A stretch of 64,000 nucleotides of DNA from an uncultured Pseudohongiella sp. (GCA_902537815.1 CACBCS010000001.1:19213-83212); one strand, 5' to 3'; counted from the stretch's first letter, positions 11,288-64,000 are shown. Translations and numbers: made by a program. Notes: generated by a model from the letters alone, not told the origin.

Positions 11288-14200
11288 GTGTCGTCGTATC
11301 AGCCCAGCTTCGCCGCGTGCCTAAAAATCATGATCACCGCGTTTATCAAGAAACTCTACGAGCAACTCTTGCTGCTGTTGATCGTTGCGCTGATTGCTCT
11401 GGCAGCTTACTTGTCGCTCGGGCGTCAGTTCATGCCCGCGATTTCAAGTTACACCGCTTTTCTGGAGGAGCAGATAGCCCAAAGAACCGGGCTACCCGTG
11501 GCCATTGGCTCTGTGGCAGGGGAATTTTCGGGTTTTAATCCCGTCCTCTTACTCTCGGATCTGCAGCTGACGATTGACGACAGCGCTGAATCGCCAGCGC
11601 TAGAGTTTTCTGAGGCAAGAATTGCTGTCGATATGGGCAGATCAATCTGGCAGAGGCGGTGGGTGCTCGACGAGTTTGTGATCCGCAACCTCCGGATTGA
11701 AATAACCCAGAGCGCTGACGGGTCATGGCAGTTGTCAGGCGTTGCGACTCCGGGCAGCAATGATCCGGTCGATCTGAACGCCCTCTATCAGACGTTCCTG
11801 TCTTTCAACCAGCTCGAGCTGCAAGATGTCGCTATCAATGTCCATCCTCGCGATGGTGACAGTTTCGGTTTTGTGCAGGGTACAGCTTCCGTCCGCAATC
11901 AGGGACAAAATCACTACCTGCACGTTAACGCCAGCCTTGAGGGGAACCCTGAGCCACTGACCGTTTCATTCGAAGTGCAGGGTAGCGCCCTGGATCAGGC
12001 GAGCGGCATGCTGCATATTCTGGTCCCTAAAGCCGATTATTCCCGGGTGTTTGCCGGTCAGGATCTGGGCGCTCTGGCCATTCTCGGACTGGAGGGCAGC
12101 GGGCAGGCGTGGATAGGAATCGAAGCAGGGCAGCTGCGTGCTGCGACGGCTGAATTTGACATCCCCAGTCTGACCGCTGGCAGGCAAAGAGAAGAGCCGT
12201 ACCGTCAACCGGAATCTGAACTGCTGGGTCTGACGAACCTGAAAGGCCTGGCGAGGTTAAGTCGCCGCAGCGGAGAGAGTGCCTGGGAGCTGGCGCTGGC
12301 AAATATGTCGATGACCTATCGTGCTGACTCATGGCAGTCTTTTAACGCACGGCTTCTGTTCACGCCGGATCAGCTTCTGACAATCGCTGCTGATCATCTG
12401 GATTTGGGCTTGCTGGCACGCCTAGCAGGTGACAGCGGGATTATGCCGGATGCTGCGGAAGCGGACCTGAAGGGTTTCAATCCGGATGGTTCCCTTCAGA
12501 ACGTTTATCTGAGTCTGCCGATTTCAGAGACAGAGAGTCGACCGCTTATACTGAAAACCAATATTGCAGACCTGCAGCTGGAGTCGGTCAGAAATTCTCC
12601 CAATCTCTGGGGAATGGACGGCTTCGTTGAGCTCGAGTTTGACCGCTCTGTCCAACAGCTGACCGGTGTTGCTGAAGTGAACTCATCCGACTTCAGTATG
12701 AATATTCCGTCCACATTCACCAGAGTCTGGGACTACTCCCGGGTGAACGGTCGCCTGCACATTAGCGTGTCAATGGCGAATGGTCAGGTCGTGAAGCTTG
12801 CCAGCGATAGAATCGTTGTTGAGTCAGATGCTCTCGACGGCAGTGTCAGATTCACCTCGATCACTGAACGCTTCGCCGATGGCAGTCGTGATGCGAGGCT
12901 TGATCTTATGGTGGGGGCAGATCGCATTGAGGGCTCCCAGAAATCGCTCTACCTGCCTGATGGTCCGAACATCAGCGACAATCTCCGCAACACCATGGAA
13001 TTCCTGGAACGGGCCCTGATTAATGGCCAGGTATACAACAGCGGGATTCTCTACCGGGGATCAACTGTCAGCGGTTCCGATGCGTTGAGTAAAACCTTTC
13101 AGAGTTTCTGGCAGCTCAGTGACGGGCAGATAAATTTCAGCGATGACTGGCCGAATCTGGAATCGCTGACTGCCACAGTGCAAACCGATGATGACAATAT
13201 TGATATTACCGTGGACTCAGGCAGCAGCCTCGGTCTGCAGTTCGAAACCGCTACCGGCGCAGTCCGACGTGACGCGGCCTCTCGAAACTGGCTGACCGTT
13301 CTGGGCTCAGCAACCGGCGAGACATCCAGCGCTCTGGAATACCTGCGAGCCGCGCCTGTTGGTGACGGTCTCAAGAATGCGCTCGCAAGCTGGCAGTCGC
13401 AAGGCGCCGTTGCCGGCGATCTGTCGCTGTCGATTCCGCTTGATCAGCCGGAAGCTGACACTGCGGTTCACCTTGAACTGTTGCTGGAAGAAAACGATCT
13501 GATCATCTCGGATTACGATCTTGATATCAGCCAGTTATCCGGTTCGGTCATTTATGATTCGGAGGCAGGCTTTGAGCCGACGGAACTGACCGGCCAGGTG
13601 TTTGACGGGTTAATGGAGGCGACCTTGTCCTCGGTTCATGAGCAGGGAGCGCTTGCCAGTATTGTTGTTGAAGGGGCGGGTGTGACGTCCCCTCAGGCGA
13701 TGATTGAGTGGCCCCGGCAAAATGAATTTGTCAGAAGCTTGCTTGCCAATATGGAAGGTGACTTTGCCTACGAAGCGGTGATCACGATGAACCAGGTCGC
13801 CGCGCGTGAATCGGGCAGAGTGCTTGAGATTCGCTCCGATTTGCAGGGTGTGAGCATGAATTTGCCCCCGCCCTACGGCAAGCAAGCTGGATCGGCCGCT
13901 CCGCTGGATCTGCGCATTCAGTTTGGGGAAGAGAGTCAGCAGTCTGTCGGAAGATTGGGCGATTCATTGCGCTTTACTTTGAATCAGCCCGCTGATGCGC
14001 CGACCCGTGGTCTGGTTATGCTCGGTCAGCAAAGCGGAAGTCTCGACCCGCTGGCAGAAAGCTTGCCGCCGGGACTGTCGGTTCTGGGTGATTTCGACAG
14101 GTTTGAGCTTGAACCCTGGGTTGAGTTTATCTCCGGCATGTCGGATGGCGCCCAGTCTGATTCCGAGCTGGATCAGACAATAGCCTTTGCTGATATCTGG

Positions 14201-58106: not shown

Positions 58107-59396
58107 TTAATCGATGATTGCCTGATAAATTCCACTTCGGAGTTTGCTGTAATCGTCTATTCCCTGTGCCGGGATCAGTTGAGTCAGATAAACCACAACC
58201 AGTTCTTCAGACGGGTCTACCCAGTAGGTTGTATGGTAGGCGCCTCCCCAGCCATACTCTCCCTCAGAGCCGAGAATGCCTCTCTCACCCAGATCAGTGA
58301 CAACAAAAAAACCCAGACCAAACCCCTGGCCATCGCGGAACGGTATGCCTCCAAGATGATCAGTTGTCATCAGTTCGATCGTCCTACGCGACAGGATGCG
58401 CTGCCCGTCCAGCTCGCCACCGTTCAGAGTCATTTGCAGAAATCGGGCGTAGTCTTTTGCGGTGGGAACCAGGCCGGCGCCGCCGGAGAATGAGGTATTA
58501 GGACCGCTGCCCTTCACCTAGAGACCCTGACTCTGCATGCCGTCGCTGCTGTCGATCGCACGTATGCCGCCTCCTGGTGCGGGCTCATAAACAACAGCGA
58601 GTCGCGCTGCTTTGTCTTCTGGCAGAAAAAAATGGGTGTCGGTCATTGCCAGGCGTTCAAACAGCTCTTCGGTCATAAAGGTGCTCAGATCTTTGCCGCT
58701 GGCGACCTCTATCACAGCGCCCAGGATGTCTGTGTTGTACCCGTAAATGTATTCCTCTCCCGGATGCTGGTCCAGGGGCAGGGCGGCCATCCGCTTGATG
58801 GACTCCAGAACCGGTTCAGTTCTGTCAGCAAAGTACCATCCCTGAAAACCTGCTTGCCGCCACTGATCCCGCGCCGGACCGCTGCCATAGCTGACCCCGC
58901 CAGTGTGGGTAAGCAGGTGGCGAATGGTGATGGGTCGTCTGGCGTCTTCCAGGCGATAGCTGCCGTTCGCTTCGCTAACGGCAACTTTCATGTGTTCCCA
59001 TTCTGGGATATCGCGACTCAGAGGGTGGCTGATATCAAGCTGGCCGCGCTCATGGAGTATCATGATGCCGGTGCTCATCAGTGCTTTTGTCTGAGAGGCG
59101 ATCCGGAAAATGGAATCTTCACTCATGGGGATCCCTGCTGCCTTGTCCTGCCAGCCGTTAGCAGCCGAAAAAACTACCCGACCCTTACGCAGTACCATGG
59201 CAACCTGACCGGCAAGCTGTTCATTCTCTACATATGATTTCAAGACCGTATCCAGACAGTCGAGCCGTTCTGATGACATGCCGGCTCGCTCCGGCCTGAC
59301 GTGGGAAAAGTCGGCGGCAAAACCGAGTTGCGCGGTGGCGAGCAGTACAACTGTGATAGTGGTGAATAGGCGTAAAAAGGGGAGCAGTGCTCTCAT
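58107..59396 (-). pseudogene. serine hydrolase (beta-lactamase/transpeptidase-like, PF00144-type) interrupted by an in-frame TAG
   Basis: ORFs 58518..59396 and 58107..58517 abut in the same frame around TAG 58518-58520. The N-terminal part has a signal peptide and SQTK (SxxK). The C-terminal part continues the fold (SGGAGLVPTAKDYARFLQM). Confidence 0.7.
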
Positions 59397-60633: not shown

Positions 60634-61818
60634 TTAGTAAACTTCGAAAAGTCCGGCAGCACCCATGCCCCCGCCAACGCACATGGTGCAGACGACGTAT
60701 TTCGCCCCCCGGCGCTTACCCTCGATCAGTGCGTGACCGACCATGCGGGCGCCACTCATACCGTACGGGTGGCCAATTGAAATCGCGCCACCATTAACAT
60801 TCAGCAGTTCATTGGGTATCCCCAGTTCGTCCCGGCAGTAGATTACCTGCACGGCAAATGCTTCATTCAGCTCCCACAGGCCAATGTCGTCCATGGACAG
60901 ATTGAAGCGCTCCAGCAGTGTCGGGACGGCTTTAACCGGGCCAATGCCCATTTCATCAGGTTCGACTCCGGCAACTGCCATGCCACGATAGGCACCGAGC
61001 GGTTTCAGGCCTTTCTGCTCGGCCAGTTTGCTGTCCATCACTACGGAAGCAGAGGCACCATCAGACAGCTGGCTGGCATTTCCCGCGGTAATAACCCCAC
61101 CCTCGAATACCGGCTTCAATCCGTTCAGCCCTTCAAGGGTCGTTGTGGGTCGGTTGCCTTCGTCTTTTTCGAGATGAACATCGTGGACGCTCTGCTCTTT
61201 GGTTTCTTTGTCAACGAAGACCATTTTCGAATGCAGAGGTGCGAGTTCTGCATCGAAGGCACCTGCCTGCTGAGCGGAGGCGGTCCGCTGCTGACTTTGC
61301 AGCGCGTATTCGTCCTGCTGCTCGCGGCTGATTTTGTAGCGCTTGGCGACAACCTCGGCAGTCTCCAGCATCGACATATAAGCGTGCTCGGACTTATCAG
61401 TGACGCTGGGGCTTTGTGCGCGGAAGCCATTGCGATGTTCGTTCTGCACCAGACTGATAGTGTCCAGCCCTGCTCCGATCACAATGGGCATGTTGTCATT
61501 GACGACCTGCTTGGCGGCAGTACAGATTGCCATCATGCCCGATGCGCACTGTCGATCTATGCTCATGCCTGAGACTGAGCTCGGCAGCCCTGCTGCAACA
61601 GCTGCCGTTCTGCCGATGTTGTAGCCTGATGTGCCTTGCTGCATGGCGCAGCCCATGATGACGTCATCGACCTCACCCGGCTCGATCCCTGCCCGGCGGA
61701 CTGCTTCAGCAATCACGTGGCCGCCAAGTGTGGGGGCGTCGGTATCATTGAAAGCCCCTCTGTAGGCTCTGCCGATAGGTGTTCTTGCGGTTGCTACGAT
61801 TACTGCTTCTTTTGTCAT
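60634..61818 (-). CDS. acetyl-CoA C-acyltransferase (thiolase)
   Basis: 394 aa. DRQCASGM active-site Cys, and [17 protein letters not shown] / CVGGGMG motifs. Confidence 0.9.
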
Positions 61819-61833
61819 GTTTTGCTCCGGTTA

Positions 61834-62355
61834 CTAATTTTCGACCACGAGTTGCAAGACCTGCTCTATCGCATTTCTGGCCAATTCTTTCATCTCCTCA
61901 TCCGTCCTGTCCTGAATAGGATGCGGAACGAATACGCTTTTAGGGTGGATGCCCAGGGAATTTCCCTGCGCTTCTGCTGCCTGTATAAATTCAGCAGAGG
62001 CAACGAATCCGGCGGGAATGCCGCGACTTTCAAGATCCATGATGTCATGCAAACTGCACGAGGTACATGAGCCTCAGTCGGCCAACCCTTCAATGACGGC
62101 ATCGCATTCACTGCTGATCCGCTGGTAAAGCTCTTTGGGTGCCACACGAGCGAATGTCGGCTTGGCGTACCTGAGTACTGTCGCCCCCAACGCTTCAAGT
62201 TCGACCTGGACCTCATCGAGAAATTCCTTGCCGCGTGGTTTGGAAATATCCAACAGGCCAACGGTTGTTTCACGTAGTGTGTCCAGGCGAGGCAGAAGTT
62301 GCCGTTCCGCCGGACTGTGTTCGCTGGTCGGGTCCAGCATCGTCATAGTGCTCAT
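61834..62355 (-). CDS. UGSC-type selenoprotein, UGA (62074-62076) read as selenocysteine; 173 aa
   Basis: Two same-frame ORFs are separated only by TGA plus 7 sense codons. The junction reads ...EGLAD-U-GSCTSCSLHD... (UxxCxxC). The downstream half lacks its own ATG/GTG and RBS. selD is present in the window. Confidence 0.75.
62045..62070 (-). promoter_or_regulatory. candidate SECIS hairpin 3' of the UGA (hand-folded)
   Basis: mRNA +7..+13 UCAUGUA pairs with +26..+32 UGCAUGA. A small apical loop CGUGC lies about 17-21 nt after UGA. Confidence 0.3.
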
Positions 62356-62366
62356 TTGAGTCTCCG

Positions 62367-63803
62367 TTATTGAATGCGTTGAGAGACAAGTTGACTGCCT
62401 CTTTCTCCGGAAGCCACCCAGCCGCTGATGATGGCCGAAAACATGCCGGCCGTGCCGCCAGCAGTAACAATGTGCAGGCCATCGTCCCGGAATTTGCTCA
62501 GTAATTTGTCTTTCAGTCTGTCCGGCATGCCTTCTGCGATGCCGCCGGTCCCGCTGACGAGATCAGCGCCCGGGGTAACCAGTTCGTCGTGAATGGCCTG
62601 CAGTAAATCCTGCTTGTGCCATCCGTTCGTTCGCAGCACCTGTCTGTGTTCGGGGCAGACCACAAGCACGGCATCAGCCAGACCGAACTTTTTGACATGT
62701 ACGACGGATCGCAGGCTGGAAGCCATGCTTTTCGCCAACGATTCAGGAGTCCGCGACAGCTGATCCAGAATGGGCTGCACGCCGTCACCCGCGAACAGGC
62801 TGACTACGGATTCCTCGCGCGAGTATCCCTGATCCATGGCAAGTGTAGACCACGCGTCATCTGACTCATCTTCCGCAAAGCAAAAGGTGTATTTGCCGGG
62901 ATTTCCGAGGGTCGCCCGGTCGATGCCGCCGGGTTTGCCGCCACCGACATTTCTGATCAGCAACTGGAGAGCTCTGCCGATGGTTGCATTGGCGCGGTTG
63001 CCCTGACCCAGTGCATTGCCCCCTGAATTCATGCCGATATGTCTGCTTTCAGGACCGTTAACGATAACAACAGGTGATGAGAAATAGGTGGTACACAGCA
63101 GGCCATGCATGCAGAAGCGATCCTGCAGTGCAGCTCTCACAACGGCAACGACGGTCGGGAAATATTCGGGCTTACAACCGGCCATGACGGCATTGATCGC
63201 CACTTTCTCGACGCTGCAGGGGATGTTGTCCGGTGGCACGATGCCGATCAGCTCATCGGCTTCCAGTTCGGTTCCGGCCAGCATTCGCATGACCCGCACA
63301 GGCGTCGGCGGAACGACAGGCAGGCCGTCTGACCAACCGCGGTCGAAGCAGGCTTCCATGTCGTCTTCAGCGTTGGCAAGCTGGATACGTCGTGCTTTGA
63401 GTTTTTGACTGTTAAATTTGGCGGCCAGCTTTTCAGCCATTCCGGGGTCTTCGGTCAGAGAGCCGCAACCCGGTTTGAAATCGATGAGCTCGGCTCCAAG
63501 CTCGGGAATGCCGGTAAAGTCCTGCCACTGCTGCTTGTCCCAACCGACGATGCGCTGTTCGTCTTCATCATGGCGGATCAGGGTTGGCACGATCTCTATG
63601 TTCTGCCGGTAGGATTGTTCTAACTCGCCGTCGTCAATCCGCTGGGCAATCCCTTCGAGGAAAGACATGTCGTCCTGAATATAAACAGACAGTCGACTGC
63701 CGAGGTGTTCGGACAGCAGTTTGGCGACAGGCCCGATCAGTTCACAAGTCGGGCAGGATTTTTTCAAGAAAAGCGAGTAGCTGGCGGCAGTTGATGAAGG
63801 CAT
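62367..63803 (-). CDS. thioredoxin-fold (CPTC) domain fused to a large domain of unknown function
   Basis: 478 aa. N-terminus LFLKKSCPTCELIGPV...VPTLI resembles a Trx-like CxxC fold. I cannot assign the remainder (GWSDGLPVVPPT, NATIGRALQLLIRNVGGGKPGG). A GGAG RBS and an 11-nt spacer lead to the selenoprotein gene. Confidence 0.6.
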   Translation of the reverse strand: MPSSTAASYSLFLKKSCPTCELIGPVAKLLSEHLGSRLSVYIQDDMSFLEGIAQRIDDGELEQSYRQNIEIVPTLIRHDEDEQRIVGWDKQQWQDFTGIPELGAELIDFKPGCGSLTEDPGMAEKLAAKFNSQKLKARRIQLANAEDDMEACFDRGWSDGLPVVPPTPVRVMRMLAGTELEADELIGIVPPDNIPCSVEKVAINAVMAGCKPEYFPTVVAVVRAALQDRFCMHGLLCTTYFSSPVVIVNGPESRHIGMNSGGNALGQGNRANATIGRALQLLIRNVGGGKPGGIDRATLGNPGKYTFCFAEDESDDAWSTLAMDQGYSREESVVSLFAGDGVQPILDQLSRTPESLAKSMASSLRSVVHVKKFGLADAVLVVCPEHRQVLRTNGWHKQDLLQAIHDELVTPGADLVSGTGGIAEGMPDRLKDKLLSKFRDDGLHIVTAGGTAGMFSAIISGWVASGERGSQLVSQRIQ

Positions 63804-63828
63804 GATGTCAGTCGCAGGGAGATAGAGG

Positions 63829-64000
63829 TCAGTAGATGAAACCCAGTGTAGAGATGCCGACCAGTACGTTGATAATCATGAAGATCGAAGAGGTGCGCGA
63901 CATCACTTTCCAGAGCTGTGGCCCTTTGTAGGCAGCCTTGATTCCCAGAATCAACAGAAAGGTGTAGGCCAGTGCTGTGACGACGATGCCCAGATATAGC
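63829..64000 (-). CDS. C-terminal end of a small hydrophobic membrane protein (5' end outside the window)
   Basis: The minus frame is open from the window edge to TGA at 63829-63831. The tail is LYLGIVVTALAYTFLLILGIKAAYKGPQLWKVMSRTSSIFMIINVLVGISTLGFIY, two TM helices. Confidence 0.4.
   Translation of the reverse strand, partial: LYLGIVVTALAYTFLLILGIKAAYKGPQLWKVMSRTSSIFMIINVLVGISTLGFIY

Follow-up and report, generated by a model that had tools for sequence, protein, structure and literature searches.

The end of a 64,000-nt stretch of DNA from an uncultured Pseudohongiella sp. (GCA_902537815.1 CACBCS010000001.1:19213-83212; hereafter the window, at its full length) raises the question of which genes act together with a selenoprotein of the UGSC family encoded there, and in what kind of chemistry. 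The listing of open reading frames (ORFs) and the sequence place four minus-strand genes here in the same direction, with spacers of 25, 11 and 15 nt. In order, they encode the 3' part of a small membrane protein, a 478-aa protein with an N-terminal thioredoxin (Trx) fold, the UGSC selenoprotein and a thiolase. A preliminary description proposed that the four form one system, and its account of co-directional genes with tiny spacers, of their coordinates and of the sequence blocks in the 478-aa protein is accurate. The system itself is smaller. Thiolase and membrane protein genes are found with the other two genes only in the loci closest to the window (L001-L008) and in none of the other 72 loci compared, and these comparisons indicate that the conserved functional unit is a pair of genes, the 478-aa protein and UGSC, and not a four-gene operon.

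The 478-aa ORF lies at 62367-63803 (-), with the N-terminus MPSSTAASYSLFLKKSCPTCELIG, and contains the blocks GWSDGLPVVPPT, AINAVMAGCKPEYFP, NATIGRALQLLIRNVGGGKPGGIDRATLGNPGKYTFCFAEDE and VCPEHRQVL. Residues 1-105, the Trx-fold domain, are encoded at 63489-63803 (-). A linker and a domain of ~370 aa that we call DOM (together aa 106-478) are encoded, stop codon included, at 62367-63488 (-). The 11-nt spacer between this ORF and the UGSC gene contains GGAG. UGSC is read as a 93-aa ORF up to a TGA, and then in frame as GSCTSCSLHD... to position 61834, giving a read-through product of 173 aa encoded at 61834-62355 (-).

A genome scan with one genome per species gave at least 597 confirmed Trx-DOM loci, and the best 80 of these were analysed. 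They derive from Gamma-, Alpha-, Beta- and Deltaproteobacteria, Myxococcota, Chloroflexota, Actinomycetota, Spirochaetota and Krumholzibacteriia. L001 is a contig of a near-identical genome (97% identical to the window), and L002-L008 are the seven loci closest to the window, from Pseudohongiellaceae / Pseudomonadales metagenome-assembled genomes. UGSC directly follows Trx-DOM on the same strand in 80/80 loci. Because this adjacency recurs throughout, we do not attribute the arrangement to chance. Clustering of the flanking ORFs identified no other gene family common to more than 18/80 loci.

The association extends to plasmids and chromids of cultured organisms. DOM was found in 24 such records. 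UGSC was found in 21 of them, in each case next to DOM, and two others (Sporomusa and Vibrio) encode divergent UGSC-DOM fusions. Haloarchaea are among the hosts of these replicons (Natrinema, Halalkalicoccus, Halorientalis, Haloterrigena and others). Ten proteins of 415-450 aa that had been called as "DOM" were scanned, and eight have the post-Sec (selenocysteine) half of UGSC fused to them, with one further weak match. Gene calls start Sec-containing UGSC-DOM fusions after the TGA (P0276, P0292, P0306, P0311, P0327, P0344, P0370 and P0372), and the miscalled fusions appear as DOM with a 60-100-aa N-terminal extension. Next to stand-alone DOM genes, UGSC is found either upstream (L082, L086, L093) or downstream (L088-L090, L108-L110). 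Judged from gene order and fusions, the DOM-UGSC linkage is obligate, and functional coupling of the two proteins is very strongly supported.

The 173-aa product matches the "UGSC family (seleno)protein" model NF041046 with 145.9 bits (cut-off 125) and PF24696 with 147 bits (cut-off 25; residues 6-170 covered); these scores were computed with U replaced by C. Its motif, D93-U94-G-S-C97-T-S-C100, belongs to a stretch, D-U-G-S-C-T-S-C-S-[LV]-H, that is almost invariant in 81 loci (a count that includes L001). The Sec codon of the window, corresponding to residue 94, is the TGA at 62074-62076 (-), and the same position in the 81 loci is TGA in 76, TAG in three and TGC in two. Within the downstream coding sequence, at 62037-62070 (-), is a predicted hairpin resembling a selenocysteine insertion sequence (SECIS). 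It starts 16 nt past the TGA and has a GU in its loop; in the window, an apical stem CGUGC/GCAUG with the loop AGUUU (62046-62060) sits on a lower 5-bp stem. An alignment of 34 loci, 32 whose Sec position is a stop codon and two with Cys, gave the consensus CGUGC / AGU[GU]U / GCA[CU]G. The hairpin is kept in 32/32 loci with a stop codon, one TAG locus among them, and destroyed in both Cys loci, though the GSCTSCS encoded downstream stays unchanged in the latter. We regard this as a bacterial SECIS signature because the structure is retained with Sec and lost with Cys while the encoded peptide is intact. Of the Sec loci, 28 encode Ser-Val or Ser-Leu in the loop, and all 28 use AGT for the Ser, even in high-GC genomes; the remaining four encode Cys (TGT) at that position. 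The comparative evidence indicates that the TGA at 62074-62076 encodes selenocysteine.

All three TAG loci are from Geodermatophilaceae: Blastococcus sp. (L038:1371-1373), Geodermatophilus sp. (L057:1947-1949) and G. obscurus DSM 43162 (L072:7386-7388). The last is the only TAG locus in the hairpin alignment, and its SECIS-like hairpin is intact. No tRNA-Sec was found within the fetched flanks of the three loci. On the strength of codon position and hairpin, the TAG looks like natural UAG-to-Sec recoding, a phenomenon that is presumably tied to the UGSC family. Such recoding is itself documented in general (PMC10778597, citing Mukai 2016).

UGSC was first mentioned in 2007 (PMC1976440) and was one of the selenoprotein families most abundant in the metagenomes from Global Ocean Sampling (GOS) in 2008 (PMC2398784). 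The latter study also noted a fusion with an unnamed conserved domain, "UGSC/Unknown_1", which may correspond to DOM. Gene calls split UGSC at the TGA into pieces of ~95 and ~80 aa, as at L082:1029-1577, L093:6399-6968 and L108:3402-3941. A separate observation concerns a plasmid of Arthrobacter sp. ERGS1:01 (L089:8000-8815), where UGSC has an extra C-terminal NifU-like domain (PF01106, 27 bits). From its annotation, this tail hints at an iron-sulfur or redox-scaffold connection of the UGSC family.

The partner protein begins with a segment carrying CPTC that had been described as thioredoxin-fold-like, and structure prediction agrees. The AlphaFold2 (AF2) model, built on a 58-sequence alignment, has a pLDDT of 93.9 and a pTM of 0.87. 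In a Foldseek search of the PDB its first ~100 residues (~97 aligned) match thioredoxin m, TrxP and E. coli Trx with probability 1.0 and TMt 0.52-0.65. Residue conservation was counted over 75 orthologues. Both cysteines of the redox motif C17-P-T-C20 are present in 75/75 (an invariant CxTC), and P73 and T74 of the cis-Pro loop V72-P73-T74 are conserved in at least 97%. The 478-aa protein has no Pfam match at E<=0.01. The model indicates that its N-terminal domain is a divergent Trx fold.

The remaining ~370 residues had been judged to fall outside characterised families, and searches of Pfam, NCBIfam, PADLOC and PDB sequences, with DOM as a single sequence and as a profile and E up to 10, were all blank. 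A Foldseek search of the PDB likewise gave no credible match to DOM. The family is very large: its close relatives number over 8000, and 5277 clusters were counted at 50% identity and E<=1e-3. Its conserved features are D159-G-L-P..P-P-T167, AINAVMAGC210, G266xGxRANxTIGR277, C308-F-A-E311 and P384-x-H386. Three cysteines of DOM are nearly invariant among the orthologues: C113 (in PGCGS) in 75/75, C210 in 74/75 and C308 in 72/75, with C113 missing in most stand-alone DOM proteins. Besides the Trx fusion, DOM occurs as a stand-alone protein (~350 aa), behind an AhpC/Redoxin-like N-terminus, in tandem as DOM-DOM and fused to UGSC in either order.

Profile comparison showed no homology between DOM and UGSC. 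The invariant linker motif K-P-G-C-G-S between Trx and DOM (aa 110-114; 63462-63476 (-)) resembles D-U-G-S-C of UGSC (aa 93-97; 62065-62079 (-)), and the two are aligned in that comparison with a probability of 0.2%, which is not significant. The resemblance may reflect docking mimicry or be coincidental. Class I fumarate hydratases were considered as relatives of DOM and rejected. They are the best non-Trx Foldseek matches, but with TM 0.20-0.23 and rmsd (root-mean-square deviation) 14-17 A. In single-sequence hhalign, AGC-PEY of DOM is placed on AAC-PPY of FumA, and the probability is below 1% whether DOM is compared with E. coli FumA or with a 9-sequence FumA-family alignment assembled from plasmid matches.

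Genes of the thioredoxin system are found beside the pair where the Trx domain is not fused. We inspected nine loci without fused Trx, and trxB is beside the pair in three, once with trxA: Arthrobacter has trxB-trxA-DOM-UGSC, Roseovarius DOM-UGSC-trxB and Variovorax trxB-TctC-SDR-DOM-UGSC. No trxB was identified within 6 kb of the Trx-fused pair (0/80 loci). From these gene orders, fused Trx and neighbouring trxB form a complementary pattern. Together with the 80/80 adjacency and the fusions, the trxB and trxA neighbours uphold the earlier proposal that a CxxC protein is coupled to a UxxCxxC selenoprotein.

Also present beside the pair in some lineages is the machinery for Sec insertion. Genes for selA and/or selB adjoin it in 9/80 loci, and tRNA-Sec (anticodon TCA) is present in 5/80, in three Actinomycetota between selB and Trx-DOM and in two nearby. 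Examples with selA/selB and/or tRNA-Sec beside the pair are L064:2565-5643, L067:2551-5639, L081:18-2793, L056:8021-12447, L017:4834-7079 and L065:1623-3666; selB or selA also occurs near the pair in Paracoccus ferrooxidans and in a soil contig. Where selABC adjoin the pair, this proximity suggests that UGSC is the principal selenoprotein maintaining the Sec trait. In the window itself, selA and selB were not identified.

Distant paralogues of the pair are encoded near LysR/IclR/GntR regulators and TctC, TRAP, MFS or ABC transporters. Other neighbours include family III CoA-transferases, hydratases, lyases, HMG-CoA lyase and malonyl-CoA enzymes, as well as isocitrate-lyase-family, phosphosulfolactate synthase, aconitase X and fumarate-lyase-family genes. 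In Sporomusa and Vibrio, aconitase X with DUF126 lies beside the paralogues (L091:2899-4604 and L092:3902-5611), and phosphosulfolactate synthase does so in Natrinema zhouii and Arthrobacter (L095:3847-4314 and L089:4671-5459). These neighbours, recurring in organisms that are unrelated, are possible clues to substrate classes, namely hydroxyproline or dicarboxylates in some cases and sulfonates in others. As a whole, the gene content hints at small, mostly carboxylated substrates.

The fold of UGSC was predicted by AF2 from the Cys homologue P0121, which is 59% identical to the UGSC of the window. The model (pLDDT 90.8) is a five-stranded flavodoxin-like alpha/beta sandwich with the Sec position in the loop that joins strand 3 to helix 3, and Foldseek retrieved only generic flavodoxin-like folds. 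No sequence relatives of UGSC were found in the PDB. The literature treats the family as a stand-alone orphan with a "likely Trx-like fold" (PMC1976440, PMC2398784), whereas we find a flavodoxin-like model and an obligate DOM partner. Because the predicted fold is flavodoxin-like, we conclude, against the 2008 guess, that UGSC probably does not have a Trx fold. The other invariant residues, D36, K39, R41, K65-P-T67, H145-P and Q148, follow strands 1, 2 and 5 and, going by the topology, should lie on the same sheet edge as Sec.

Residues 67-168 of UGSC align to positions 323-418 of GrdB in TIGR01917 (E 6.9e-5, 21.9 bits). The UxxCxxC motif, given for GrdB/F/H (PMC6778437), is shared by UGSC as U94-G-S-C97-T-S-C100. 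No match to PF07355 was obtained in the Pfam scan, and tblastn of UGSC on plasmids retrieved only UGSC genes and no GrdB/PrdB. The alignment and the motif are best read as a distant relationship between UGSC and the Sec-bearing part of selenoprotein B (GrdB/PrdB), in which UGSC is a minimal version.

Taking these lines together, we consider it reasonably probable that Trx-DOM and UGSC form a cytoplasmic, thioredoxin-linked thiol/selenol oxidoreductase encoded by a two-gene module. We infer for the pair a physical complex, a direction of electron flow, catalytic residues and a class of substrate. Reducing equivalents would come from NADPH through the housekeeping thioredoxin reductase (TrxB) and enter at the CxTC of the Trx module (C17/C20), whether fused or separate. 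They would then pass to U94-x-x-C97-x-x-C100 of UGSC and/or to C113, C210 and C308 of DOM, and serve to reduce a small, probably anionic substrate bound to DOM. In selenoprotein B, attack of Sec on the bound substrate leads to a selenenylsulfide, which is then re-reduced. Because UGSC appears to be a distant relative of the Sec-bearing part of that protein, attack of the selenol on the substrate or on an enzyme-substrate adduct is the most likely chemistry, and the selenenylsulfide would be re-reduced by the Trx domain. DOM would take the place of the substrate-binding GrdE/PrdA subunit, without detectable relation to either.

A more specific proposal, which we advance only tentatively, takes the pair to be a selenoenzyme so far unrecognised and very widespread among aerobic bacteria, and present in haloarchaea as Cys forms. 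As a reductase driven by thioredoxin, it would combine a large subunit of a fold absent from Pfam and the PDB with a stripped-down selenoprotein B as its small subunit, and its reaction on a common small carboxylate would be either a Grd-like reductive C-X cleavage or a reduction mediated by the selenol. Its selenoprotein would be the reason why many Actinomycetota and Proteobacteria in which selA-selB-selC adjoin the pair keep their Sec machinery. There is a real chance that the pair represents a new enzyme class.

Several points weigh against the view of the pair as a thioredoxin-linked oxidoreductase related to selenoprotein B. The scores to TIGR01917 (21.9 bits, cut-off 602.2) and TIGR01918 (18, cut-off 65.45) are far below the thresholds, and no GrdA, GrdC/D or GrdE/PrdA homologue was identified within +-10 kb of the pair in L001. 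Since DOM has no recognisable fold relative, its role as the substrate-binding catalytic subunit is an assumption. UxxCxxC and the three spaced cysteines could bind a metal or an Fe-S cluster rather than shuttle electrons, a possibility that the NifU-like tail of the Arthrobacter UGSC brings to mind. The carboxylate and CoA-ester themes come from neighbours of distant paralogues and may not apply to the orthologous group of the window. Reviews up to 2026 (PMC13188914) still list UGSC as uncharacterised, and a 2022 review does likewise.

It is unlikely, in our estimate, that the pair is instead an antioxidant or repair reductase, acting on an oxidised species of the cell (peroxide, sulfoxide, damaged thiol adduct or protein disulfide) and not on a nutrient. 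The attacking or peroxidatic residue would then be Sec, recycled by the fused Trx, as in Trx-fused Msr or peroxiredoxins. This explanation fits the lack of any conserved metabolic neighbour in the Trx-fused group, where the two genes alone are shared, and the replacement of Trx by an AhpC/TSA-Redoxin domain in other family members. It also fits the hosts, which are mostly aerobes, and the abundance of UGSC in surface waters, whose metagenomes contain selenoproteins that are mostly thiol oxidoreductase-like (PMC2398784). However, the distant paralogues lie in catabolic-looking islands with regulators, transporters, CoA-transferases, hydratases and lyases, and a highly conserved 370-aa domain rich in invariant Arg and Asp suggests a specific small ligand. 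In addition, UGSC is predicted to be flavodoxin-like and not of a Trx/Prx fold.

We regard a metal or Fe-S enzyme as highly unlikely. Here U/CxxCxxC and C113/C210/C308 would ligate a cluster or metal, DOM would be a catalyst of the hydro-lyase type or another that works without a thiol relay, and Trx would serve only in activation or repair. CxxCxxC is a classic cluster motif, the three DOM cysteines are about 100 residues apart, and class I (Fe-S) fumarate hydratases give the best non-Trx Foldseek matches to the 478-aa model, with probabilities of 0.35-0.66. The NifU-like domain on the Arthrobacter UGSC and the aconitase X, isocitrate-lyase-family and fumarate-lyase-family genes near some paralogues point the same way. 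Those structural matches, however, have a TM of 0.2 and an rmsd of 14-17 A, and the profile probability of DOM against class I fumarate hydratases is below 1%. The absence of C113 from most stand-alone DOM proteins also counts against a cluster, and the tight tie to Trx, Redoxin and trxB suits dithiol chemistry better.

A third alternative involves the thiolase. The thiolase gene (60634-61818 (-)) encodes a 394-aa acetyl-CoA C-acyltransferase that matches TIGR01930 with 416.7 bits (cut-off 240.55), PF00108 with 210.6 bits and PF02803 with 139.5 bits. With 573 bits to PRK07108, it is a full-length, typical degradative enzyme, and the catalytic Cys/His/Cys motifs DRQCASG, GHPYG and CVGGG can be read in its translation. 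The membrane protein gene is present at 63829-64000 (-) with its stop codon at 63829-63831. It had been described as a partial membrane protein; its full length, read from L001 (9685-9975), is a small protein of 96 aa with three predicted helices. It has no Pfam or NCBIfam family and no cysteine. Because it lacks cysteine, it is not a component of a thiol relay. By tblastn, both genes were detected only in L001 and L002-L008 (0 of the other 72 loci). Co-occurrence of UGSC with both the Trx fusion and the thiolase, which the preliminary description had raised, is therefore confirmed for the fusion (80/80) and not for the thiolase. Because they are confined to the gammaproteobacterial clade of the window, we do not regard the thiolase and the membrane protein as core parts; they may be co-transcribed with the pair as lineage-specific additions. 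A consensus scan of the region identified no terminator-like sites in the spacers between the four genes. The region has three terminator consensus matches, as many as chance alone would give, and all of them fall within coding sequence; the promoter and terminator scan as a whole gave nothing above chance. In L001 the thiolase match is split (L001:11987-13169, as 11987-12982 and 12987-13169) and called as 367 aa, probably through a frameshift or an assembly error; the copy in the window is intact.

If the thiolase did belong with the pair, the locus could encode a Stickland-like pathway in which Grd-type C-X cleavage leaves an acyl or carboxymethyl group on Se, and the thiolase, acting as protein C (GrdC/D), passes this group to CoA. 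We consider this very improbable. It would account for the position of the thiolase, which starts 15 nt past UGSC in the window and within about 100 nt in L002-L008, after a spacer without a terminator-like site, and for the resemblance of UGSC to GrdB, with UxxCxxC in both. Genes for family III CoA-transferase (8/80 loci), acyl-CoA dehydrogenase (11/80) and MaoC (6/80) are found nearby, and MaoC, CoA-transferase and malonyl-CoA genes are also near the pair in further lineages. Acyl-CoA genes are, however, very common in such genomes, and loose co-occurrence with them is weak evidence. Against the pathway are also the restriction of the thiolase to eight loci, its character as an ordinary full-length degradative enzyme and the absence of a GrdA-like CxxU carrier. 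That there is no functional link at all, with mere adjacency and a TGA that is a real stop or an error, is effectively excluded on comparative grounds by the 80/80 adjacency across phyla, the fusions in either order, the selABC linkage, the conserved in-frame TGA with downstream coding and a hairpin, and the Cys and TAG variants at the same codon.

In the window as a whole, neither tRNAs nor, at gathering thresholds, Rfam matches were found. A gene of the beta-lactamase family (serine hydrolase) at 58107-59396 (-) is interrupted by an in-frame TAG at 58518-58520, where L001 has a Tyr codon. With TAG as the codon and Tyr in L001, this is not a Sec site. Near its 3' end, the L001 copy is out of frame relative to the window, and the interrupted gene is probably a pseudogene or reflects assembly errors.

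The claim that the locus represents an undescribed system holds for its function and for the partner protein. It does not hold for the UGSC family, which has been catalogued since 2007-2008 and has NCBIfam and Pfam models; already known, too, is the fusion with an unnamed conserved domain, noted in 2008. In the literature searched, no description appears to exist of UGSC as an obligate partner of DOM, of DOM as an orphan family and of how large that family is, of the systematic wiring to thioredoxin, of the linkage to selABC or of a flavodoxin-like UGSC fold. An orphan selenoprotein thus gains a context, with an obligate large partner, thioredoxin wiring and, in several lineages, the genes for decoding Sec alongside, and becomes a system of two proteins that can be tested. 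Hosts in culture include Geodermatophilus obscurus, Roseovarius, Arthrobacter, Variovorax, Paracoccus and haloarchaea, and natural Cys variants, such as those of L037 and L040, suit expression in E. coli. For annotation, it matters that DOM is a large family without a Pfam or NCBIfam model, and that public annotations contain many UGSC and UGSC-DOM genes broken up or cut short at the TGA. If Grd-like cleavage does occur in aerobes, selenium chemistry of the Stickland type would extend well beyond anaerobic fermenters, which would help to explain the demand for selenium in surface waters.

Among known systems, the Stickland reductases (the glycine/sarcosine/betaine reductases, GrdB/F/H with GrdE/G/I, and D-proline reductase, PrdB with PrdA) come to mind first, as in the pair a small Sec subunit is combined with a larger partner. 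The analogy with their relay, drawn in the preliminary description, stands as far as the weak similarity to GrdB and the shared UxxCxxC are concerned; membership of the family fails on scores, on the partner and on the lack of GrdA or GrdC/D. UGSC, at 173 aa, has no counterpart of the first ~320 residues of GrdB. Between DOM and the GrdE/PrdA pyruvoyl proproteins there is no similarity, and DOM, searched with 22 members, has no Pfam or NCBIfam match even at E<=10. In contrast to a Stickland cluster, GrdA and GrdC/D are absent beside the pair (+-10 kb in L001). The hosts differ as well, Stickland reductases belonging to amino-acid fermenters and the pair mostly to aerobic heterotrophs. Stickland reductases are fed by TrxB-TrxA; for the pair, the genomic linkage to thioredoxin consists of the Trx fusion or, in Arthrobacter, Roseovarius and Variovorax, of trxB or trxA neighbours. 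The grd operon has the order trxB-trxA-grdE-grdA-grdB, which trxB-trxA-DOM-UGSC of Arthrobacter resembles. Fusion of Trx to the large subunit sets the pair apart from the Stickland reductases.

That fusion has its parallel among Trx-fused or Trx-dependent thiol reductases, which include the Trx-MsrA-MsrB fusions (PilB of Neisseria), Trx-coupled ArsC and the peroxiredoxins. In Trx-fused reductases, as would be the case in Trx-DOM, a Trx-fold CxxC module is covalently attached to the catalytic module that it recycles. The parallel with peroxiredoxins extends to the AhpC/Redoxin-type modules that form alternative N-termini in the DOM family. The catalytic domains of Msr, ArsC and Prx are unrelated to DOM, and, unlike these enzymes, DOM always requires a separate Sec/Cys subunit beside it.

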